Source: a virus. Taken from it: a DNA stretch of 15,593 nucleotides. Positions 656 to 15,568 of this stretch are shown here, piece by piece. A model generated the notes under the pieces. That model was given only the letters and a program-made list of their open reading frames with translations. It was not told where the DNA came from and ran no database searches. The DNA is taken from the UHGV virus genome UHGV-0078853, one strand, 5' to 3'. The position numbers and the translations under genes were made by a program. The stretch's first letter is position 1. Every line of letters begins with the position of its first letter.

Positions 656-919
656 CTATTCCAGAATATTCCTCACGTAATCCTGCAACATGAACACTTT
701 AAGTCTCAGTTGCCGTACACATTCTGCGTTCTGGACGTCAATAGCTAAATCCTCGTCCGCGTCGTTACTTGGCAGTGCCAGTTTGCACGGCGGCTGCATC
801 ATCGTCGTATCCGGGGATGGAATTGGCGTTTGCGACGGCGCGGGACTTGAGCTGCACGCGCTCAGGGTCAAAAGTGCACACGCTGCGGCCAGGCGTTTTA
901 ATGTACTTAACGACTTCAC
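656..919 (-). CDS. o-spanin (Rz1-like outer-membrane lipoprotein), overlapped with i-spanin
   Basis: GTG start at 919-917 with AGAGGT Shine-Dalgarno. Signal peptide ends in lipobox LSAC, followed by a Pro/Ser-rich mature region (CSSSPAPSQTPIPSPDTT). It begins inside the upstream gene in another frame and extends 109 nt past its stop. Confidence 0.6.
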   Translation of the reverse strand: MKSLSTLKRLAAACALLTLSACSSSPAPSQTPIPSPDTTMMQPPCKLALPSNDADEDLAIDVQNAECVRQLRLKVFMLQDYVRNILE

Positions 920-1175: not shown

Positions 1176-1195
1176 GCCCCGCCTTAAAGCGGGGC
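1176..1195 (-). promoter_or_regulatory. GC-rich leader hairpin (GCCCCGC-cttaaa-GCGGGGC) just upstream of the i-spanin start
   Basis: 7-bp perfect inverted repeat read from sequence; on the minus strand it is followed by UUUACUUAUCG and then the spanin Shine-Dalgarno. Attenuator/terminator or stabiliser role is inferred. Confidence 0.4.
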
Positions 1196-1215
1196 GCTAG
1201 TCCTTATCATTTAAA

Positions 1216-1408
1216 CATAGAAACGGCGTAATCTCAGTAAACCAGTTACTTTTTACACAAGCAATAGAGTATGGCCCTTCCGAACGCGTCAGCGTAACTA
1301 CACTCAGGACTTACGTCCCGCTCCGTTACCTGCCCGCGCCGCGGTCGCTTGTTCATACTTCACAAGCTCAGGTGGAGCTTAGCACATTTTTGGTGAAAAG
1401 TCAACTAT
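1216..1408 (-). repeat. copy A of a roughly 190-bp conserved non-coding promoter-leader element (copy B at 12484-12680)
   Basis: Manual alignment with 12484-12680 shows long shared blocks, e.g. caatagag/ctNtggcccttccgaa, aactacactca, ccgcggtcgcttg, cacaagctcag, agcttagcaNattttt, aaaagtcaa. Roughly 75-85 percent identity by eye, direct orientation. Confidence 0.8.
1376..1404 (-). promoter_or_regulatory. putative sigma70-type promoter inside element A (TTGACT-N17-TAAGCT, minus strand)
   Basis: Minus-strand -35 TTGACT at 1404-1399 and -10 TAAGCT at 1381-1376 with a 17-nt spacer. The same hexamers and spacing recur in copy B. The -10 is weak, so strength is uncertain. Confidence 0.4.
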
Positions 1409-1466
1409 TCGAATAGTTTATTCCAACATTTACAATTGAGTGGAATAACTGGAATAATCACAGGCA

Positions 1467-1489
1467 CTAAAAAGCCCCTTTCGGGGCTT
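1467..1489 (-). terminator. intrinsic terminator downstream of the Ig-like gene
   Basis: Minus-strand RNA forms AAGCCCC-GAAA-GGGGCUU followed by a U-run (UUUUUAG), 5 nt after the stop at 1494. Confidence 0.6.
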
Positions 1490-1493
1490 CAGT

Positions 1494-1955
1494 TTATTCT
1501 TGCTTAGTAACCTTCGCTGCTTTACTTACGGCCTCTATACCATCGGCATCAGTGACTTTAACGAAGTATTCACCAACTGCGTTAACCGTCAGAGACAGAG
1601 CCTCTTCCGGGGCGTTTACCACTTCCTTCCCGTCTTTGTACCAGGTCAGCGCATATGGTGCTTTGCCCGCCTTAACTTCGACAGCGATATTTGCGCTGCC
1701 GTCTGCCAGTTCAGCGTCCTGCGGTTGTACGGAGAAATACACATCACCAGCATCCGCCAGGTACTGAATCTCATAAAGCATACCTGCCGCTGGCAGCGCA
1801 ATACCGGTCTTGTCCGCAAACGGCATATCGTCCACTGGTGTTCCGAGTACACTTTCGTCTTCAATAAACACCACGTTCTCGCCAGAGCCAGACACGCGGG
1901 CGTACTGGACTACGCGACGAGACGGTACGTCAGTTACTTTGAAAAAGCCCATCAT
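1494..1955 (-). CDS. Ig-like domain protein (possible head decoration or accessory protein)
   Basis: ATG at 1955 overlaps the upstream stop (TAATG). C-terminal about 60 aa (YALTWYKDGKEVVNAPEEALSLTVNAVGEYFVKVTDADG) resembles bacterial Ig-like (Big_2-type) domains. Confidence 0.55.
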   Translation of the reverse strand: MMGFFKVTDVPSRRVVQYARVSGSGENVVFIEDESVLGTPVDDMPFADKTGIALPAAGMLYEIQYLADAGDVYFSVQPQDAELADGSANIAVEVKAGKAPYALTWYKDGKEVVNAPEEALSLTVNAVGEYFVKVTDADGIEAVSKAAKVTKQE

Positions 1956-3031
1956 TATTCCCCTTTCAGATAATCAGCAACACGTTTATCGAGTTCCGCC
2001 ATCTGCTTAAGCGTGAGCGGATTCCCGAAACCATCTACAGATATTACGCGAAACTCTTCCGGCGATATACCGCTGTTACGGAAAATCTTACCTCGCACCG
2101 GGCCGAGCGCCTGGTCCTGAAACCACGCCGGTTGTTGTTCAAGGAACTCGTAGTAAGTGGTGTCTACGCTTACCTGAGTGCCACCTTCCGCGCCTTTAGC
2201 CGCGCGTTTTGCGCCTTTATCGAGGAAGTCGAACTCGGAACTGATTACCGGAGCCGTGCACGACCGGCAGTTCGGATGGGCAGGGGGCATCGGCCCCTTA
2301 CCAATTTCCCACGTCATCCCGTCTCTGACCCTGCAAATCGTACTGGTGCGGCTGTCAAGCGTTGACACCCACTCGTACTTCTCTATGATGTCGTCGTTCT
2401 GGCGGTACGTCTCGTTACGGGCTTCGTTGGACACGTGAGACAGCGCGGTGCGGATGACGGTAGCGGCGTTACGCTCAGAGATGTCCGCCAGCCCACCGGC
2501 GCCTACTACATTCTTAACAATCTGCCGTGTTGTTTGACCTTGTACAAAGCCCATCTTAACGCCGGTTACAAGACGTGCTACTTCCGTTTCACCCCAACCT
2601 GACATCAGTTTAGTGAAATCAACTGGCTTGCCACTCAATGATAATGGCTGAAACTCAGCAGCGGCCCACACCTGTTCGGCGGTGGGCGTAACAAATTCCG
2701 CATCTACGTTGGCGGTCAGGGTCTTTACGTTCCACTCAGCTTCATACACCGCCAGTTCCTTGAGGTCTTCTGCCAGCTTTGTTTGCCAGTCACCAGTAAG
2801 TCCTGTCAGTACTTCTTCAAGGTCACGTAACAGTTTATTCAGTCGCGCAGTGCTGCGACCGTCGTCGCCGAATAGCAGCACCTGCCGTTTGATTTCGTCC
2901 CGCATCTCCTTAATGAACGGCGCGAGGTCTTTCACCTCACCGGATGCGGTTCGTTGCAGCCATATCTGGTGGCTGATTAGTGATGTAAGTAAGCTCATAG
3001 ATAAACCCTGTGGCGCTAAAGTTAATAGCAT
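1955..3031 (-). CDS. head morphogenesis protein (phage Mu F-like / SPP1 gp7 family)
   Basis: Motifs YEWVSTLDSRTSTICRVRDGMTW and PPAHPNCRSCTAP match the Mu F-like domain; sits immediately downstream of portal. Start is either ATG 3031 (no Shine-Dalgarno) or ATG 2998. Confidence 0.8.
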   Translation of the reverse strand: MLLTLAPQGLSMSLLTSLISHQIWLQRTASGEVKDLAPFIKEMRDEIKRQVLLFGDDGRSTARLNKLLRDLEEVLTGLTGDWQTKLAEDLKELAVYEAEWNVKTLTANVDAEFVTPTAEQVWAAAEFQPLSLSGKPVDFTKLMSGWGETEVARLVTGVKMGFVQGQTTRQIVKNVVGAGGLADISERNAATVIRTALSHVSNEARNETYRQNDDIIEKYEWVSTLDSRTSTICRVRDGMTWEIGKGPMPPAHPNCRSCTAPVISSEFDFLDKGAKRAAKGAEGGTQVSVDTTYYEFLEQQPAWFQDQALGPVRGKIFRNSGISPEEFRVISVDGFGNPLTLKQMAELDKRVADYLKGE

Positions 3032-3041
3032 ACTATAAGAA

Positions 3042-3057
3042 AGCCCCTTTCGGGGCT
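3042..3057 (-). promoter_or_regulatory. hairpin AGCCCC-GAAA-GGGGCU between portal and head morphogenesis genes (terminator-like or stabiliser)
   Basis: Same core stem-loop sequence as the terminator at 1472-1489; on the minus strand it is followed by UUUCUUAUAG. Confidence 0.4.
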
Positions 3058-3067
3058 ATATGTGAAC

Positions 3068-4561
3068 TTACTGCTGGGTGGGGTCTTTTTGCTGCGCCGA
3101 CTGCGGAATCTCCCCAGCCACCTGAGCAACAGCACCTAATGGCAGAGGCGCATCCTCAATAGCGTTCTGAATGTCCTCGTCTGTCCAGTCAGTTACCCCC
3201 GCCTTACGCAACGCAGCATAGTAAGCGGTAGCCGGTAACAGGCCCGCGTTAATATCCGCCATCCACTGCGCGCGGTCCTGAGCGGTCATTGGTTGCAGGA
3301 AGAACTCCATGTTCAGTTTGAACTCAATTTCAGTGCTGTCGCTAATCCCAAGCATACCCGCGACCCAGCGCAACGCATCGGTATACGCCATGCTTACGTT
3401 ACGTGCGATTGTTGCCATAACGGACGTATCAGCGCCGCGTTGCAGGCGTGCCGATTCCGCGGTGATTTGCTGCGTCGGGGTAATAAGCTGTGCACCAATC
3501 TGGATTGCCTGGTTCTCTTTATCCAACATGTTCTGCTTGGCTAGGTTGTTCTCACCGGCCTGGACCAGAAACGCATTGCCGCCGTAACCGATGTTATGGC
3601 CGGAACGTGACCCCATACGCACTCCGTGAGGGTTGGCTTCTTTCCATTGCCCCATGCTCATGTTCTCACCGGGGGCGATGAACAGAGTAGGCTGGCCTAC
3701 GACGAAGCTGGACTCCTCATTGTCCGCGCTGTTGCGGAAGTGCCCGATATTAAGTTCAGCCAACGGCAGCAAAGGTGCATCGTCAGGGGTTGAGTCGTTA
3801 TTCCCTGCACCAATGAATGTGAACGGAATCACCCCGACCGGAATATTACCGAGTTTCGGGAATATTTCGATATAGCCACCTTCCATCAGTGCACCTTTCT
3901 GGTTAAAGCGGTACAGACGCTGGCGATACTGGCCTTCGAAAATATCAAGGACGCGGTATTGCTCGCCGTAGTTGGGGCTGAACTCATCCGCGCCATCGGT
4001 GTACTCGTATTCCTCACGCAATACAACCATAACCACACGATTAACAGACCCGACGCGCTGGAGACGCCAGTTGATGATATTCTCTGCGGTGTAGAAAGCG
4101 ATTGTTGGGTTTAGTAAACCCTCGTTTTGCTCTGCCATGGTAGCTACTTCTACCGCGGGGGCGTCAACCAGCAACCCACCGCGACCAACAGCATCAATCT
4201 CATACAGAGTATCCTGTGCGTGCTGCCACAGGCCAACGCCCGACCCGTCACAGTTAGTGGTCAGGTATTCCATCTGAGACGGAATAATCATCTCGGGGTC
4301 TTTGCGCATTACGCTGCCGACCATGCCTGAAAGCGTTCGCTTGGTGAAGTTGTAGCAAATTGCCCCCGCTTCGTATTCAGCCTGACGCTGGCGACCGTAA
4401 ACCGGGTCCGGCTCGTTCTTACTGACGTCACGTAGATACGATGTCAGGTCGCCAGAAAGAGCATGTCGCACCTTCTGCCACTTAGGGAAATACTCTTCGT
4501 ACTGGCGGTGGCGGGTTTTAACGTTCTGCCCTTGCCCTGCGTTAATGTTTGCGGAAACCAT
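3068..4561 (-). CDS. portal protein
   Basis: 497-aa ORF directly between terminase large subunit and the Mu F-like gene, the canonical portal position; ATG 4561 with AAGAGGA Shine-Dalgarno. Assignment is by size and synteny, not by a recognised motif. Confidence 0.7.
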   Translation of the reverse strand: MVSANINAGQGQNVKTRHRQYEEYFPKWQKVRHALSGDLTSYLRDVSKNEPDPVYGRQRQAEYEAGAICYNFTKRTLSGMVGSVMRKDPEMIIPSQMEYLTTNCDGSGVGLWQHAQDTLYEIDAVGRGGLLVDAPAVEVATMAEQNEGLLNPTIAFYTAENIINWRLQRVGSVNRVVMVVLREEYEYTDGADEFSPNYGEQYRVLDIFEGQYRQRLYRFNQKGALMEGGYIEIFPKLGNIPVGVIPFTFIGAGNNDSTPDDAPLLPLAELNIGHFRNSADNEESSFVVGQPTLFIAPGENMSMGQWKEANPHGVRMGSRSGHNIGYGGNAFLVQAGENNLAKQNMLDKENQAIQIGAQLITPTQQITAESARLQRGADTSVMATIARNVSMAYTDALRWVAGMLGISDSTEIEFKLNMEFFLQPMTAQDRAQWMADINAGLLPATAYYAALRKAGVTDWTDEDIQNAIEDAPLPLGAVAQVAGEIPQSAQQKDPTQQ

Positions 4562-9948: not shown

Positions 9949-10130
9949 CACTCCACCCCTTCCACATGTGTAACTGACCCACAGTTCGCGCACTCGATGT
10001 AATCCGGGAACTGGTCTTTGTATTTCTGTAACTCAGCTTCGAGTTTCGCGTAATCTTCGTAAAGCACTAACACGCCCTCAACATCAGGAGTAAACCCGAA
10101 TATCTGGTCGTAGGTATATCTCTGTACCAT
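9948..10130 (-). CDS. hypothetical small protein, tandem paralog 1 (60 aa)
   Basis: Start ATG 10130 with an AGGAGA Shine-Dalgarno 7 nt upstream. N-terminus MVQRYTYDQIFGFTPDVEGVLVLYEDYAKLEAEL; C-terminus has a CANCG motif. Confidence 0.5.
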   Translation of the reverse strand: MVQRYTYDQIFGFTPDVEGVLVLYEDYAKLEAELQKYKDQFPDYIECANCGSVTHVEGVE

Positions 10131-10336: not shown

Positions 10337-10881
10337 CAGAAGTATTCCCCGCACGTTTTACATACTTTCGTACCGAACGGCGCGGAGCCACCTGTTATTA
10401 CATAATAGAAACTGTGTTTGCACTCCTGTGTACAGGCTGTTGCCCCATACTCAAGTCCGTCCCACTCACGCTTGCCGCATTCGCAGCAAAACCGGCTACC
10501 GGGCACGTTGTCCTTGTGGCCTTCGGCAATAAACAATCCTGGAGTGATAATCCAATTGTGGTCACATTCCTGCGTATCTTCTTTTCGGCAACCAGATTGC
10601 TCCGAACCGTACGCACCTTTGCGGATAAGTTTGTATGCCTCCACGTCACCAGTAGCCTCGACCAATGCCAGATGCAACTCCTTAACTTGCCCTGTCAGGT
10701 GCGATATGTGCTCAGATTTCTTAATGTTGTCTTCCCGCAACTCCTTAATCTGCGCCGACGCATCACGTAACTGATTCTTAAGTGACTGCACCTCATGCGC
10801 CAGGTCTTCGCTCCGGCTGTTATTTACCTGCTGCCGTAGCTGGTAGATCAGGTACTCGAATATTTCGTTTTTGTTACTCAT
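10336..10881 (-). CDS. coiled-coil protein with C-terminal Cys/His-rich (zinc-binding-like) domain (181 aa)
   Basis: Start ATG 10881 (MSNKNEIF...) with an AAGGGG Shine-Dalgarno. N-terminal half is heptad-like and charged; C-terminal half has CDHNW, CCECG, CTQECKH and CKTCG clusters. Confidence 0.6.
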   Translation of the reverse strand: MSNKNEIFEYLIYQLRQQVNNSRSEDLAHEVQSLKNQLRDASAQIKELREDNIKKSEHISHLTGQVKELHLALVEATGDVEAYKLIRKGAYGSEQSGCRKEDTQECDHNWIITPGLFIAEGHKDNVPGSRFCCECGKREWDGLEYGATACTQECKHSFYYVITGGSAPFGTKVCKTCGEYF

Positions 10882-11011
10882 CAGCTTCACCCCTTTTCTC
10901 ATCCACCCCGACTAGCAGCGATTTAGTGTCGCCGTCACACACCGAAGTGCTACTAATTATTTCGTAAGCGTCTACCAGTTCGCCTAAAGTCCAGCTACCG
11001 TACCGGCCCAT
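10874..11011 (-). CDS. hypothetical micro-protein (45 aa)
   Basis: ATG 11011 preceded by an AGGAG Shine-Dalgarno; its stop overlaps the start of the downstream gene; hand-translated. Confidence 0.3.
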   Translation of the reverse strand: MGRYGSWTLGELVDAYEIISSTSVCDGDTKSLLVGVDEKRGEADE

Positions 11012-11041
11012 CTCTGTCTCTCCTCTCGCTTGTGTAAATGA

Positions 11042-11070
11042 ATAGTAGCCTATTCTATCTTAGTGTGCAA
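11042..11070 (-). promoter_or_regulatory. internal promoter, TTGCAC-N17-TACTAT family (minus strand)
   Basis: Minus-strand -35 TTGCAC at 11070-11065 and -10 TACTAT at 11047-11042; same hexamers, spacing and flanking AATAGGnTACTATTCA as the promoter at 12335-12363. Confidence 0.45.
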
Positions 11071-11076
11071 GTAAAT

Positions 11077-11250
11077 TTATTGGTGTGTTATGGAGTCGAT
11101 GAATGCCAGTAACTCCCTTTCCGCTTCTGCCTCTCTTTCTTCAAGCGACCAGGTAGCGGATTCCTCTGTCGCCGTTGCTAAATCGGTTTTCGCATCAACC
11201 ATCGTGTCGATTAACGTGATTAGTCGTTCAGCCTGTTCTTTAGTAATCAT
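11077..11250 (-). CDS. hypothetical small acidic protein (57 aa)
   Basis: ATG 11250 with an AGGAGA Shine-Dalgarno 7 nt upstream; below the track size cut-off. Confidence 0.4.
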   Translation of the reverse strand: MITKEQAERLITLIDTMVDAKTDLATATEESATWSLEEREAEAERELLAFIDSITHQ

Positions 11251-11384
11251 TGTTGCATCTCCTGCAATAGTCGCTTCGATTGTTGCGTTTGATGAAAGTG
11301 TCGCCTTTTGACGACACTAAGTTAAAGTTGTACGCTGCTGTGTGGCAGCGTAAGTCACTCAGTAAAATCCCAAACTATTGAACA

Positions 11385-11585
11385 TCACACTTCTGGCGGC
11401 TCGGGTAACGGCATCCAGTGCGTCACGTACTTATCGTAGTGATTCCAGAAAGGCTTTCTCCCGTCATCAGGAACTATGTAATAATCGTGCTGAACTGCGT
11501 TATTTAACGTTTCATACACCAGGAACTCTTTATCCGTATACCCATTACCCGGCAGCATCTCACTACACTTAATCCACTCACCCAT
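11385..11585 (-). CDS. DUF551-like phage protein (66 aa)
   Basis: N-terminal WIKCSEMLPG and C-terminal VTHWMPLPEPP match the DUF551 pattern common in phage early regions; ATG 11585 with an AGAGGTG Shine-Dalgarno. Confidence 0.65.
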   Translation of the reverse strand: MGEWIKCSEMLPGNGYTDKEFLVYETLNNAVQHDYYIVPDDGRKPFWNHYDKYVTHWMPLPEPPEV

Positions 11586-11733
11586 ACCTCACACCTCTTT
11601 CAATCAAGGATTGCACACCAGCTTTCCACGCCCGCCACGCGAGACGCGTCTTAACGTTCAGGTACTCTTTCTTTGAACCCTTGTTAACCGGCAGACCCTC
11701 GACCACAGCCCACCGTTCAAATGCTTCTCTCAT
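11578..11733 (-). CDS. hypothetical small protein (51 aa)
   Basis: ATG 11733 overlaps the upstream stop (ATGA); translation MREAFERWAVVEGLPVNKGSKKEYLNVKTRLAWRAWKAG...; stop overlaps the next start. Confidence 0.4.
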   Translation of the reverse strand: MREAFERWAVVEGLPVNKGSKKEYLNVKTRLAWRAWKAGVQSLIERGVRYG

Positions 11734-11908
11734 ACCAGAACCTCACATTCATCCAGATACACGAACAATAACGACCCTTTGTACTCAATCATAAAACCAT
11801 AATGGTTGATGCTGAACGCCGGAAAAACATCACCTACCGAGATACCGAAATCTATAAGCCTGCGGTCAGTTATACGGACAAGCCTGCGGTCAGTTATACG
11901 GATTCGCA
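11730..11908 (-). CDS. hypothetical protein with internal 8-aa tandem duplication (59 aa)
   Basis: Likely start ATG 11908 (GGGAGG upstream); N-terminus MRIRITDRRLVRITDRRLIDFG encoded by a 24-bp tandem repeat. Confidence 0.5.
11857..11904. repeat. 24-bp tandem direct repeat, 2 copies (22/24 identical)
   Basis: agcctgcggtcagttatacggaca followed immediately by agcctgcggtcagttatacggatt; in-frame within the CDS 11730-11908. Confidence 0.9.
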
Positions 11909-12109
11909 TTAACGGCAACCTCCCTCAGAGTCGTCGGCACAAGCATCACGATTCGATGCCGTTTTGATTGCCTGTAAGCTATTTAGCATTTGCTGGCTAT
12001 CCATCGTAATAATTGTAATCCCGTCTGATAAATGCACCTCGTAGCGTTCAGCTACGAAATATATTTCCTCGAAATCATGATGTTTCAGTTCTTCAAATAA
12101 TTCTTCCAT
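11909..12109 (-). CDS. hypothetical acidic protein (66 aa)
   Basis: ATG 12109 with an AAGGGG Shine-Dalgarno; overlaps the upstream stop (TGATG). Confidence 0.5.
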   Translation of the reverse strand: MEELFEELKHHDFEEIYFVAERYEVHLSDGITIITMDSQQMLNSLQAIKTASNRDACADDSEGGCR

Positions 12110-12300
12110 CACTTCGCCCCTTTAAATTTAAAATTGTTGCCGATGAGTTTTAAGTTCTCCTCTTCTACGTATATTTGTGAATTTACCCCTCTCACCTTTT
12201 GCACGGTCACTACGTACTCACCGGGAAATAAATTAGATTTTAATTCAATTATGCCGTGTTCACCGTCGGCGCATTTAACCAACTGACCATTCTTAAACAT
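12109..12300 (-). CDS. hypothetical protein (63 aa), first gene of the leftward early operon
   Basis: ATG 12300 (or GTG 12309) with a GGAG Shine-Dalgarno; translation MFKNGQLVKCADGEHGIIELKSN... Confidence 0.5.
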   Translation of the reverse strand: MFKNGQLVKCADGEHGIIELKSNLFPGEYVVTVQKVRGVNSQIYVEEENLKLIGNNFKFKGAK

Positions 12301-12334
12301 AACCCTCACTCCTCTGTCTCGTTCCGATAAGTGA

Positions 12335-12363
12335 ATAGTATCCTATTATGTTGGGGCGTGCAA
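12335..12363 (-). promoter_or_regulatory. promoter proximal to the early-left operon, TTGCAC-N17-TACTAT (minus strand)
   Basis: Minus-strand -35 TTGCAC at 12363-12358 and -10 TACTAT at 12340-12335; dyad AATAG-N4-CTATT overlaps the -10. Confidence 0.5.
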
Positions 12364-12422
12364 GAGATTAGTTACGTTGCCGTTGTGATTCTTTCGTTTC
12401 TTAAAGGAGTACGCAACGCAGT

Positions 12423-12442
12423 GGGTGGGCGTTAGCCCACCC
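12423..12442. promoter_or_regulatory. stable GC hairpin GGGTGGGC-gtta-GCCCACCC in the early-left leader
   Basis: 8-bp perfect stem with no adjacent U-tract on either strand; lies between element B and the proximal promoter. Confidence 0.45.
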
Positions 12443-12483
12443 CAGCGGAGTGAAGTACTCTCTACCTCACTCACTCACGGCAA

Positions 12484-12680
12484 CTATAGAAACTTTTAAT
12501 TATCAGTGACTTGGGTATTTAGGCGGGATTAACAATAGACTTTGGCCCTTCCGAAAGCGCCAGCGGAACTACACTCAAGTGCCTAATGGCACGCGTTGCG
12601 TTCCCTGCCGCTCCGCGGTCGCTTGCGATATCTCACAAGCTCAGTGAAGCTTAGCATATTTTTAAGTAAAAGTCAATACT
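12484..12680 (-). repeat. copy B of the conserved promoter-leader element
   Basis: See 1216-1408; same blocks in the same order and orientation. Confidence 0.8.
12648..12676 (-). promoter_or_regulatory. putative promoter inside element B (TTGACT-N17-TAAGCT, minus strand)
   Basis: Minus-strand -35 at 12676-12671 and -10 at 12653-12648; identical architecture to the copy-A promoter. Confidence 0.4.
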
Positions 12681-12781: not shown

Positions 12782-12952
12782 ATGACTATCAATGAAGTAG
12801 CTGAACGTATTGGGGTGACACGTCAGACAATTAATAACTGGATTAAGAGTGGAAAGTTTCCTGATTGCAGCGTTAAAGTAATGGGTCGCCGGATGCCGGG
12901 GACATTTGACCGTAATAAAGTTGAAGCGTGGATTAAGGAGAATGTGAAATGA
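12782..12952 (+). CDS. AlpA/excisionase-type helix-turn-helix DNA-binding protein (56 aa)
   Basis: MTINEVAERIGVTRQTINNWIKSGKFPDCSVKVMGRRMPGTFDRNKVEAWIKE matches the AlpA-family HTH pattern. Real start is ATG 12782 with AGGAGA, not the track start at 12692. Confidence 0.75.
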   Translation: MTINEVAERIGVTRQTINNWIKSGKFPDCSVKVMGRRMPGTFDRNKVEAWIKENVK

Positions 12953-14238: not shown

Positions 14239-15568
14239 AGTCGCAGAGGCCATCGGTTGGGGTGCACGTGAATCTGTTTCTTGCAGCCTGGACGACCTTG
14301 AAGACGACGAGGACTCAGAGGAGGACGAGTTACCGGAACCGGTAAAGGCTGATTTCGTCGTTGAAGGGTACATGCCGTCGGATTGCATATGGGATATCGT
14401 CGGGGAGTCCGGTACGTATAAATCCTTCTATACGCTGGGGATGATGTACCTGAGCGCCACCGGATACCGGTTTGCGGGTGCTGACACCCAGCGTTGCCAC
14501 CATTTCTATATCGACGGTGAAGGCGGCGCAGCTACCCGCACCCGTATCGATGCGCTCGCGGCTAAATATGGCGAGGAAGGTAAAGATTATGTACATGTTA
14601 TAGACATGGGTGAAATACTCGGTATGCGAGAGGATAAAAAACTTACAGCACTCATCCGTATGATGCGTGAAACAGCAGGAGAGGAACCGATCGGTATGAT
14701 TGCGTTCGATACCCTCAACCAGACGCTGGCCCTGACGATTGATAAGTTTGATGAGAACAGTTCATCAACTGCAATCGGCATGGGTAAAGTCATCGCTATC
14801 CTTAAAAAAGCGCGTGACGCGACTAAAGCTGCGGTAGGCGTTGTACACCATACACCGAAGGGCGGAAAGAAAGCCCGAGGTAGTGGTGCGCTGTACGCTG
14901 GCGTCGATGTGGAGCTGACAATCGAACGCGCGACAGACCGTCAGATAAATGTATACCACTCTAAATTTAAGCATGGGCCGCAACAGAAGACGGTTGGTAT
15001 GGTGCTTGAGTCGGTACAGTTCCGCGAAGCCCCGCCACCGAAAGAATACCGCGCGGTTGAGTTCCTCGGTAGCACAGAGGAATACGGCACAACCGTTAAC
15101 CTCGACCTGCCTGAGCCGCACAAAGCGCTTGTGCTTATGCCGTGGGGCTTCGAACCGTTCAAGACCGACGAGGAGAAAGAGCGGGAAGAAGGACTGACTA
15201 AGGAAGGTAAAGAAAACGTACGTAGAACCATGGAGAACGCCGTCAACAGTTCGGAAGCCACGATACTGGCGGCGTTTGAACTGGCGGAAGGAACCTACAA
15301 CGGCAACGAAGGTATCACGGTAGCCGCGGCAAATAAGCTCGCACAGTCTGACCCCAACGCGAAGGCGTTCAACTCCAAAGAAGTCATAGAACGCGGAAAG
15401 ATTAAGAAAATGGTTGAGGCGGGGTATCTTGTACCTGGTACGGACGAAAACAATCAGATAATCCCGGGCCGTTACAGATTGAATACCCGAATAACGGACA
15501 ACAAGATTCCGAAGACAATATACGAACCGAATGAAATGCTGACAGTGACAGAGGAGGATTTGGAATAG
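14219..15568 (+). CDS. RecA-fold replicative ATPase/helicase, AAA_25/DnaB-like (449 aa)
   Basis: P-loop-like GESGTYKS, acidic linker DDLEDDEDSEEDE, Walker B-like MIAFDTL and the VGVVHHTPKGG motif typical of this helicase family; ATG 14219 with an AAGAGGTG Shine-Dalgarno. Confidence 0.7.
   Translation: MRLPFSEVAEAIGWGARESVSCSLDDLEDDEDSEEDELPEPVKADFVVEGYMPSDCIWDIVGESGTYKSFYTLGMMYLSATGYRFAGADTQRCHHFYIDGEGGAATRTRIDALAAKYGEEGKDYVHVIDMGEILGMREDKKLTALIRMMRETAGEEPIGMIAFDTLNQTLALTIDKFDENSSSTAIGMGKVIAILKKARDATKAAVGVVHHTPKGGKKARGSGALYAGVDVELTIERATDRQINVYHSKFKHGPQQKTVGMVLESVQFREAPPPKEYRAVEFLGSTEEYGTTVNLDLPEPHKALVLMPWGFEPFKTDEEKEREEGLTKEGKENVRRTMENAVNSSEATILAAFELAEGTYNGNEGITVAAANKLAQSDPNAKAFNSKEVIERGKIKKMVEAGYLVPGTDENNQIIPGRYRLNTRITDNKIPKTIYEPNEMLTVTEEDLE

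Follow-up and report, generated by a model that had tools for sequence, protein, structure and literature searches.

A predicted promoter and structured leader RNA that occur twice in a Kagunavirus genome and head the structural operon of related phages

Cis-acting phage leader RNAs that come in pairs are already known, for example put and nut. In phage lambda, the late operon runs in the order promoter, leader, terminator, lysis genes and head genes and is controlled by the DNA-binding protein Q acting at the promoter; we know of no conserved RNA fold in the leader of lambda PR′. The only RNA-only class of antiterminators known to us is put. The HK022 genome carries put twice, each time downstream of an early promoter, and putL starts at position +3 of its transcript and consists of two stem-loops (PMC9378689). 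Here we describe a leader RNA, larger than these elements and unrelated to them in sequence, that occurs in two copies on the minus strand of the virus genome UHGV-0078853 (15,593 nucleotides; this whole stretch is called the window below). The window belongs to a Kagunavirus, a K1G-like siphophage of the subfamily Guernseyvirinae (K1G/Jersey group); its copy A region is 100% identical to several Escherichia phage records and is matched by 181 records in all.

An earlier note, made from the letters of the window alone, had proposed that a non-coding promoter-leader element of about 190 bp is repeated in two intergenic regions. Pairwise alignment of the two intervals bore this out with slightly changed boundaries. 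In a global alignment of the minus strand, positions 1262–1404 (copy A) and 12533–12676 (copy B) are identical in 118 of 148 columns (80%), with a score of 79 compared to −18 ± 5.6 for shuffled sequences, whereas the 150 nucleotides on each side of the block display 48% identity, the background level of unrelated sequence. The shared block opens precisely with the −35 hexamer and stops at CUAUUG, and a weaker likeness extends for about 60 nucleotides further downstream. When searched with a covariance model derived from relatives, the window yields two copies and no more, at 1259–1377 (145.7 bits) and 12530–12650 (105.3 bits). Judged by sequence, each copy is a single module composed of a predicted host σ70 promoter and a structured non-coding leader RNA, and the leader is very probably a genuine structured cis-acting RNA. 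As the shared block begins exactly at the −35 hexamer and core types have been swapped between the two positions (see below), the module appears to move as a unit together with its promoter, to which the leader is joined at a constant spacing.

The two promoters are built alike. P_A (1376–1404, minus strand) has a −35 hexamer TTGACT (1404–1399), a 17-bp spacer with a TG at 1384–1383, and a −10 hexamer TAAGCT (1381–1376). The corresponding elements of P_B (12648–12676, minus strand) are TTGACT (12676–12671), a 17-bp spacer, TG (12656–12655) and TAAGCT (12653–12648). The earlier note had recognized the hexamers and their spacing and missed the TG. With it, both sites read TTGACT-N14-TGn-TAAGCT and, at the sequence level, have the features of extended −10 promoters of σ70, among them A at position 2 and T at position 6 of the −10 hexamer. 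The TG is constant among relatives and the base that follows it varies (C, A or G), which is the signature of an extended −10 promoter. A simple promoter scan overlooked both sites because TAAGCT matches at only three of the six positions. In the divergent Jerseyvirus leaders, referred to as type J, the promoter is TAGACT or TTGACT with TGyTACGCT. The predicted transcript start is G1369 or A1368 for copy A and G12642 or A12641 for copy B, about 7 nucleotides after the −10 hexamer.

The first part of the predicted transcript, about 105 nucleotides, is folded. An RNAalifold consensus of 23 distinct relatives yields the helices P1, P2, P3/P4 and P5, in which the P1 hairpin begins at about +3 relative to the predicted start in types A, B and J, and is followed, two nucleotides later, by a long irregular hairpin comprising P2 to P5 and then by a conserved single-stranded tail, UUCGGAAGGGCC-N5-CUAUUG (in its general form CGGAAGGG(C/U)C-N5-YUAUUG). 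P2 is a long-range helix that pairs CCG-C-GGNGCG with CGCNUU-CGG. The core of copy A (1262–1369, minus strand), found by the covariance model, the consensus fold and the single-sequence fold, contains P1 at 1367–1362/1352–1347, P2 at 1344–1335/1288–1280, P3/P4 at 1332–1325/1298–1290, P5 at 1319–1315/1310–1306 with a GUAA loop, and the tail UUCGGAAGGGCC-AUACU-CUAUUG ending at 1262. The core of copy B (12533–12642, minus strand) is found by the covariance model, and its single-sequence minimum-energy fold has the same architecture: P1 at 12640–12634/12627–12621 with one U-G pair, P2 at 12618–12609/12559–12551, P5 formed by GUGCC (12592–12588) and GGCAC (12583–12579) around an AUUA loop, and a tail that ends at 12533. 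The motifs named by the earlier note are all present at their places, including the 5′ stem-loops GCUUGU/ACAAGC (A) and GCUUGUG/CGCAAGC (B, with the U-G pair) and the apical hairpins GGAC-GUAA-GUCC and GUGCC-AUUA-GGCAC. Its conserved core CAAGCGACCGCGG is there as well, within a fold larger than that note saw: this sequence is the 3′ strand of P1 joined to the 5′ strand of P2, and the P2 partner, CGCNUUCGG, lies about 55 nucleotides downstream.

Support for the fold comes from covariation among five sequence types and the divergent type J. For 31 distinct A and B sequences, standard pairs make up 98% of the pair cells, compared to 32–44% when the 3′ partners are slid by one to three columns; with type J added, the values are 96.8% and 31–45%, respectively. 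Two-sided changes occur at 12 pairs versus 0–5 in the slid controls, and none of 500 shuffles reaches these values. The P2 pair at alignment columns 53/119, for example, is U-A in 22 sequences, C-G in 13 and A-U in three. P1 is GCUUGU/ACAAGC in type A, GCUUGUG/CGCAAGC in type B and CGCU/AGCG in type J; P3 is CAG/CUG in A and B and UCGCG/CGCGA in J; and P5 takes the forms GGGAC/GUCCU, GGUGC/GCACU, GUGCC/GGCAC, CACGU/ACGUG, GGGCGU/ACGCCC and GGGCGC/GCGCCC, so that the compensatory change suspected in the apical hairpin is real. The register between P3 and P5 varies by type. Seven of ten sequence types, each folded alone, give the common architecture as the minimum-energy structure. Two G-U pairs of P2 are invariant in 38 of 38 sequences; the opposite strand would have A-C mismatches at these positions, and the structure thus belongs to the minus-strand RNA, the strand that the earlier note had chosen by the same argument. 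On the other side of the balance, only about six independent sequence types underlie this covariation, and alignments A3 and A4 were fitted to the structure of the model.

Three other readings of parts of the fold were tried and rejected. A pairing of the P1 loop with the tail (AGUAUG/CAUACU), present in the minimum-energy fold of type A, is lost in the tail variants AUAGU and AUAAU and in B1 and J. K-turn, sarcin-ricin and hammerhead interpretations of the internal loop matched no consensus of these motifs by eye. Finally, a −10-like AAGTAT in the P1 loop of type A, which would suit a σ-dependent pause, is absent from B and J.

Outside the helices, primary sequence is retained at the A preceding P2, in a purine-rich internal loop (GRAGC opposite AG.G.A) and in the tail. 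The sequences kept in loops and junctions (ACCGCGG, GRAGC, AG.G.A and CGGAAGGG) next to freely covarying stems form a pattern typical of RNAs that are recognized by proteins, and many early-left open reading frames (ORFs) have no known function. The leader might then be a binding platform for a phage or host protein, either a nut-like site that recruits a new antiterminator or a translational or stability operator, in which case the RNA would work only together with its factor. We consider this unlikely. The leader holds no match to the boxA consensus (CGCUCUUA or GCUCUUUAACAA); the best candidate found by eye, ACUCUAUUG in type A, becomes GUCUAUUG in B and CCCUAUUG or UAUAUUG in J and is thus not kept. 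A conserved purine-rich loop of the boxB kind is likewise absent, the P5 loop being GUAA, AUUA, GUCA, GUUA, UGUAG, CUCG or CACA depending on the type. No candidate protein co-occurs with the element, and a Pfam search detected no Q- or N-type antiterminator among 20 early-left ORFs.

The leader is non-coding, as the earlier note had stated for both copies. Among A-type variants, insertions or deletions of a single base put every frame out of register, and no reading frame is common to the three types A, B and J. A 36-codon ORF annotated on the RNA strand of copy A, as in phage Shashou, is frameshifted in the related sequences L028, L010, L038 and L023 and absent from types B and J. A micro-ORF starting from the conserved UUG after the Shine-Dalgarno (SD)-like tail was also rejected, the UUG being lost in L092 and nctD30. 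Records such as MK931440 (Shashou), NC_021777 (Jersey) and ON409568 (nctD30), among others, carry ‘hypothetical protein’ ORFs over the leader on differing strands and in differing frames, and these small annotated ORFs are most likely spurious.

An invariant SD-like tail, CGGAAGGG, that lacks a conserved start codon and a P1 hairpin that, in types A, B and J alike, starts 0–2 nucleotides from the predicted 5′ end are also what one would look for in an mRNA stabilizer. P1 and the SD-like GGAAGGG could shield the transcript from 5′-end-dependent RNase E, perhaps by holding a 30S subunit as the Gram-positive STAB-SD does, and the outcome would be high and durable expression of scaffold and capsid; the operon under copy A encodes proteins that are needed in the highest copy number. 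In a processing variant of this idea, the long irregular hairpin would be an RNase III site, as in the early and late mRNAs of T7. RNase III needs a helix of about 22 bp, and the stacked helices P2 to P5 amount to approximately that length. We regard stabilization or processing as a doubtful explanation of the leader. A terminal hairpin would suffice for a stabilizer, which leaves a near-invariant internal-loop and junction sequence over 100 nucleotides and 100% identity across genera unexplained, and RNase III has little sequence requirement.

At gathering thresholds, Rfam 15 gives no match over the whole window; at E-values of up to 10, matches near copy A are at chance level and copy B has none. 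Rfam holds no put family and is therefore uninformative on put. A blastn search of the core against 5,426 complete Escherichia coli genomes returned no match, and hence no host-derived copy was detected. Scanning GTDB with a 20-base pattern produced 30 stretches, of which only L152, a contig of a Bacillota-labelled metagenome-assembled genome that is most likely phage sequence, is significant by the covariance model; two others score 15–17 bits (E-values of 0.07–0.2). A metagenome scan found only known leader types, and when viral contigs were scanned by pattern, every contig with the element was consistent with Guernseyvirinae. The literature found under Kagunavirus, Guernseyvirinae, Jerseyvirus and Jerseyvirinae contains no description of the element, and the RNA family appears to be undescribed. 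The one RNA-seq study that we found is at gene level and gives coarse timing only (PMC12645636).

The two copies are distributed differently. Copy A is located upstream of the spanin genes in all 181 matching records, which comprise Kagunavirus and part of Jerseyvirus, and type J, which was found in SETP7, Jersey, SS3e and wksl3, takes up this position in about 265 additional Jerseyvirus records. The leader thus heads the capsid/structural operon in about 450 of the genomes searched. Copy B, in at least four sequence types, was found in only about 49 of the 181 records, all Kagunavirus. In distribution, the two are thus not equivalent: copy A is present wherever the leader occurs, and copy B is not. 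Since only about a quarter of leader-bearing genomes have it, copy B is probably a secondary transplant and not an obligatory partner: copy A is best taken as the ancestral site, and copy B looks like a module transplanted onto the early-left promoter of some Kagunaviruses.

Comparison with Salmonella phage LSPA1 shows how strongly the site is constrained. The interval from about 50 nucleotides upstream of the −35 hexamer to the downstream hairpin is 92–100% identical between the window and LSPA1, and the flanking genes are 58–84% identical, an indication from sequence comparison that the leader is under stronger purifying selection than the adjacent genes. Copy B was not detected in LSPA1 with the full covariance model run unfiltered; at its position there, a comparable promoter, TTGACATTTTCA...GTGTAAGTT, precedes another leader. 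This LSPA1 region (L136:37790–38700) contains the promoter TTGACATTTTCATTTTTTTCGTGTAAGTT and then about 900 nucleotides with GC-rich hairpins, no annotated gene and no leader core.

Copies at the two positions seem to have been exchanged. In contigs L023 (2212–2331) and L054 (1602–1721), the core type usual at one position occupies the other, such that a core usual for B stands at position A in one contig and the same core stands at position B in another. These swaps suggest gene conversion between copies and indicate that modules have been exchanged and are presumably interchangeable. Furthermore, in a metagenome contig of 5,212 bp (L104, OIHY01001419.1), sequence equivalent to window positions 10440–12676 is joined to that of 1262–4323. 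The junction runs across the shared 144-nucleotide block, from B-downstream to A-upstream. Either recombination between the two direct repeats produced this contig, as a deletion circle or a duplication junction, or the repeat misled the assembly into a chimera.

Swapped cores and such a junction are what would be seen if the block acted purely as DNA, that is, if it were a promoter duplication kept alike by gene conversion that served for recombination or as an extended site of protein binding and did nothing as RNA. The compensatory changes described above, however, preserve pairing, be it Watson-Crick or G-U; a site in duplex DNA would have no need of the two invariant G-U pairs, which are specific to one strand; and conservation is highest in single-copy genomes, where gene conversion cannot act. 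We therefore assign a purely DNA-level role an almost negligible probability.

Some other phages have different sequences at this locus. Upstream of their spanin genes, Cornellvirus-like phages carry highly structured leaders that are built differently: type C1 (L187:577–667, L192 and L193, which are GRNsp27, phiEap-2 and Hafnia TS33) and type C2 (L194, L195 and L196, which are Shemara, SE1 and VSiP). These share only pieces with the present element, namely ACCGCGCGGAAGGG, AUAGUCUAUU, hairpins with GUAA loops and a covarying hairpin before the ribosome-binding site. They could not be unified with the fold described here, as covariance model R1 scores only 7 bits on GRNsp27 and the single-sequence folds differ. 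Klebsiella phage 37P2 has an unrelated AT-rich region at the leader locus.

Downstream of the core, both copies are followed by a GC-rich hairpin before the first gene, as the earlier note had observed. The distal leader of copy A (1196–1261, minus strand) is 92–100% identical to that of LSPA1 by sliding identity and alignments. Its second block, GAGAUUACGCCGU, is partly common to types J and B, and no convincing conserved structure was found in this segment; the second block, GAUUnCGCCGU or UGCCGU, might conceivably pair with the 5′ strand of P2 or with the internal loop. The copy A hairpin (1176–1195, minus strand), found by a terminator scan and as an inverted repeat, is GCCCCGC-UUUAAG-GCGGGGC followed by UUUACUUAUC. 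It resembles an intrinsic terminator, with eight pairs and the tail UUUACUUAUC, and lies 24 nucleotides upstream of the spanin start codon at 1151. At copy B, the inverted repeat GGGUGGGC-UAAC-GCCCACCC forms the hairpin (12423–12442, minus strand), and other B types have a different one, GGUGCC-UUCG-GGCACC, at the equivalent place. In every type, the first gene has a GC-rich hairpin in front of it, and a reasonable U tract follows this hairpin only in type A. The stem itself covaries (GCCCCGC/GCGGGGC, GCCCUGC/GCAGGGC in L001, GCCCGGC/GCCGGGC, and GCCCGAC/GUCGGGC in SE-W109), which, together with the restriction of the U tract to A, shows that the structure is selected and that a terminator role is clear only at A. 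In the distal leader of copy B, (CTCA)3 on the plus strand at 12466–12477 gives (UGAG)3 in the RNA. GUGA/UGAG units are more numerous here than in close relatives, and other B types have a run of about three to six CUCA/CACU units, on the RNA strand, at the equivalent place.

The combination of a compact core of this size, conserved unpaired nucleotides and, at copy A, a terminator-like hairpin before the first gene corresponds to the general layout of a riboswitch. A metabolite or ion would then be bound by the core, as aptamer, with the GC-rich hairpin as expression platform. This is very unlikely: the hairpin is located 65–110 nucleotides past the core and the intervening sequence differs by type, the hairpins of B and J are poor terminators, and Rfam gives no match. 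By eye, no alternative pairing between core and hairpin is conserved across A, B and J, the sole candidate, between the P5 5′ strand and the 5′ arm of the hairpin, being present in A and J and not in B. The same hairpin, together with the promoter that copy A has of its own and the 92–100% conservation of the whole 300-nucleotide interval, distal part included, could also mean that P_A transcripts ending at 1176–1195 accumulate as an abundant small RNA of about 195 nucleotides that acts in trans on host or phage targets or sequesters a host factor such as a defence protein. We find this distinctly improbable as well, given that copy B has no terminator and is merely the 5′ end of a leader of about 340 nucleotides, the 3′ tail UUUACUUAU would make a poor Hfq-type U tail, and the ‘seed-like’ distal part is not common to A and B. 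The window contains no complementary site beyond chance expectation; the tail has four matches with up to two mismatches, two of which are the copies themselves.

Upstream of the −35 hexamer, the two promoters differ. P_A is preceded by a perfect 16-bp operator-like palindrome, AACTATTCGAATAGTT (AACTATTC/GAATAGTT, 1403–1418), which covers two bases of the −35 hexamer, and, beyond it, by three operator-like TTATTCCA/TGGAATAA sites at 1418–1425, 1441–1448 and 1450–1457. P_B has no such repeats. TTATTCC repeats are also found upstream of type J (SETP7) and type C1 leaders, and the Cornellvirus-like leaders of GRNsp27 and phiEap-2 have the upstream repeat GGAATAAATTATTCC. By their sequence, the P_A repeats look like operator sites for a putative regulator of the late promoter. 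Because the two promoters differ in this way, the co-regulation of both transcription units suggested earlier would be limited to whatever effect the leader itself has. Further upstream, between the Hoc-like gene and P_A, the hairpin AAGCCCC-UUUC-GGGGCUU (1472–1489) is a terminator on the minus strand with the U-rich tail UUUUUAGUG; the terminator scan assigned it to the plus strand, and the minus-strand tail was read by eye. The record of phage Shashou annotates a terminator at the equivalent site.

Read along the minus strand, the gene order starts with promoter B and its leader, followed by small early-left genes, a lysozyme gene and NinH, continues through terminase, portal, head morphogenesis and Hoc-like decoration genes to the terminator, and then reaches promoter A and its leader, with the Rz-like spanin and scaffold genes on their 3′ side. 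The spanin pair (765–1151 and 656–919, minus strand) is directly 3′ of copy A, which leads an operon of spanin, scaffold and capsid genes. The genes 3′ of copy B are small and have no assigned function. A helix-turn-helix gene (12782–12952, plus strand) stands back to back with copy B, and this gene and the replication genes run in the opposite direction, leading away from the B region. Two other repeats were seen near the early-left genes. One is a perfect 23-nucleotide direct repeat, AAGCCTGCGGTCAGTTATACGGA, with two units one base apart (11856–11902), inside the early-left gene region. The other is a 48-nucleotide stretch present at 11024–11071 and 12317–12364 with 71% identity and a near-palindrome, TGAATAGTAnCCTATT, inside; the latter copy lies just upstream of the first early-left gene (start at 12309, minus strand), and the stretch may be another shared regulatory site.

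Combining these observations, we propose that the leader influences, in cis, what becomes of the transcript that carries it and, with low confidence and as a best guess, that it does so as an element of transcription elongation, that is, by antitermination. In this model, the folded leader would act, alone or with a putative factor, on the elongation complex from which it has just emerged. Transcription entering from upstream would halt at the 1472–1489 terminator, and transcripts begun at P_A or P_B would resist subsequent stops: the terminator-like hairpin at A, Rho acting on the untranslated leaders of 220–340 nucleotides, and intrinsic terminators along the long operons. We rank this role first because (i) types A, B and J all begin their fold at about +3, as putL does, (ii) the copy A module lies between a terminator and a terminator-like hairpin, the order being terminator, promoter, leader, terminator-like hairpin and first gene, (iii) more intergenic terminators follow downstream (in LSPA1, at 9980–9997 after the capsid gene and at 14442–14461 after the tail gene) and no protein antiterminator is recognizable, and (iv) the leaders of 220–340 nucleotides are untranslated, and RNA of this kind is expected to be exposed to Rho.

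Several observations weigh against antitermination. The start sites, 3′ ends and read-through are predictions. The put RNA, at about 70 nucleotides compared to about 105, has no detectable sequence similarity to the leader. The SD-like GGAAGGG of the conserved tail would equally suit a stabilizer that binds a ribosome or a protein. The copy B hairpin has the tail ACUGCGUUGCG without a U tract and is not listed by the terminator scan, and that of type J has a weak U tract, UUAGCGUAU. Most genomes carry a single copy of the leader, and the differently built leaders of Cornellvirus-like phages mean that the exact fold is not indispensable there. A more far-reaching form of the proposal, in which the leader is a second, structurally unrelated put-like class that by itself renders the RNA polymerase of E. 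coli or Salmonella resistant to termination, and in which promoter plus leader form a portable cassette widespread in a large group of virulent siphophages used in phage therapy, is speculative and, on balance, unlikely to hold as a whole.

Guernseyvirinae (Kagunavirus, Jerseyvirus and Cornellvirus) are among the most often isolated phages of E. coli and Salmonella and are used in therapy and biocontrol, yet little appears to be known of the timing and maintenance of transcription in these phages, for which they use the host polymerase. The present leader is more conserved than the surrounding proteins and matches no described RNA family. Were it to modify RNA polymerase, it would join put as only the second class of RNA-only antiterminators known to us and would also provide a compact genetic part for expression that is insulated and terminator-proof. 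If it turned out to be a stabilizer or a protein-binding site instead, it would still mark the main control point of late gene expression, and its assignment would also correct many records that annotate small ‘hypothetical proteins’ across it.

Of the known systems, HK022 put resembles the leader in several respects. Both are cis-acting leaders, a candidate one in the present case, made from σ70 promoters by host RNA polymerase; both fold from about 3 nucleotides after the start (here a predicted one) into two stem-loops with bulges and internal loops; and both are found as two related copies that head two operons, with terminators downstream and no known antiterminator protein gene found. 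The put RNAs give factor-independent read-through of terminators in cis and depend on the β′ zinc-binding domain of RNA polymerase; the likeness of the leader to put is one of layout, and put-like antitermination by it would be a prediction. The differences are that the present leader is longer (about 105 versus about 70 nucleotides), that there is no likeness in sequence or by covariance model, that both operons run one way instead of diverging, and that the second copy exists only in some genomes. When model R1 was run against the HK022 immunity region holding putL and putR, located by their inverted repeat, neither matched, the best hit being one of 6 bits (E-value of about 1) elsewhere.

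The lambda PR′-tR′ (‘6S’, Q) arrangement parallels copy A, which likewise consists of a promoter, a leader of about 200 nucleotides and a terminator-like hairpin followed by lysis (spanin) and head genes. It differs in that no protein of the Q family was found here and the conserved feature is RNA structure. Lambda nut is similar in being a pair of related RNA elements downstream of two promoters, each including a short hairpin, and different in that the leader is three times longer and no N-like protein was identified in the present case. Finally, stabilizers of the 5′ untranslated region, such as the ompA-type hairpin and Bacillus STAB-SD, resemble the leader in placing a hairpin at the very 5′ terminus and in having an SD-like sequence that no conserved start codon follows; the known ones, however, are short and tolerant of sequence change, whereas the leader of these phages keeps about 100 nucleotides of specific sequence and structure.

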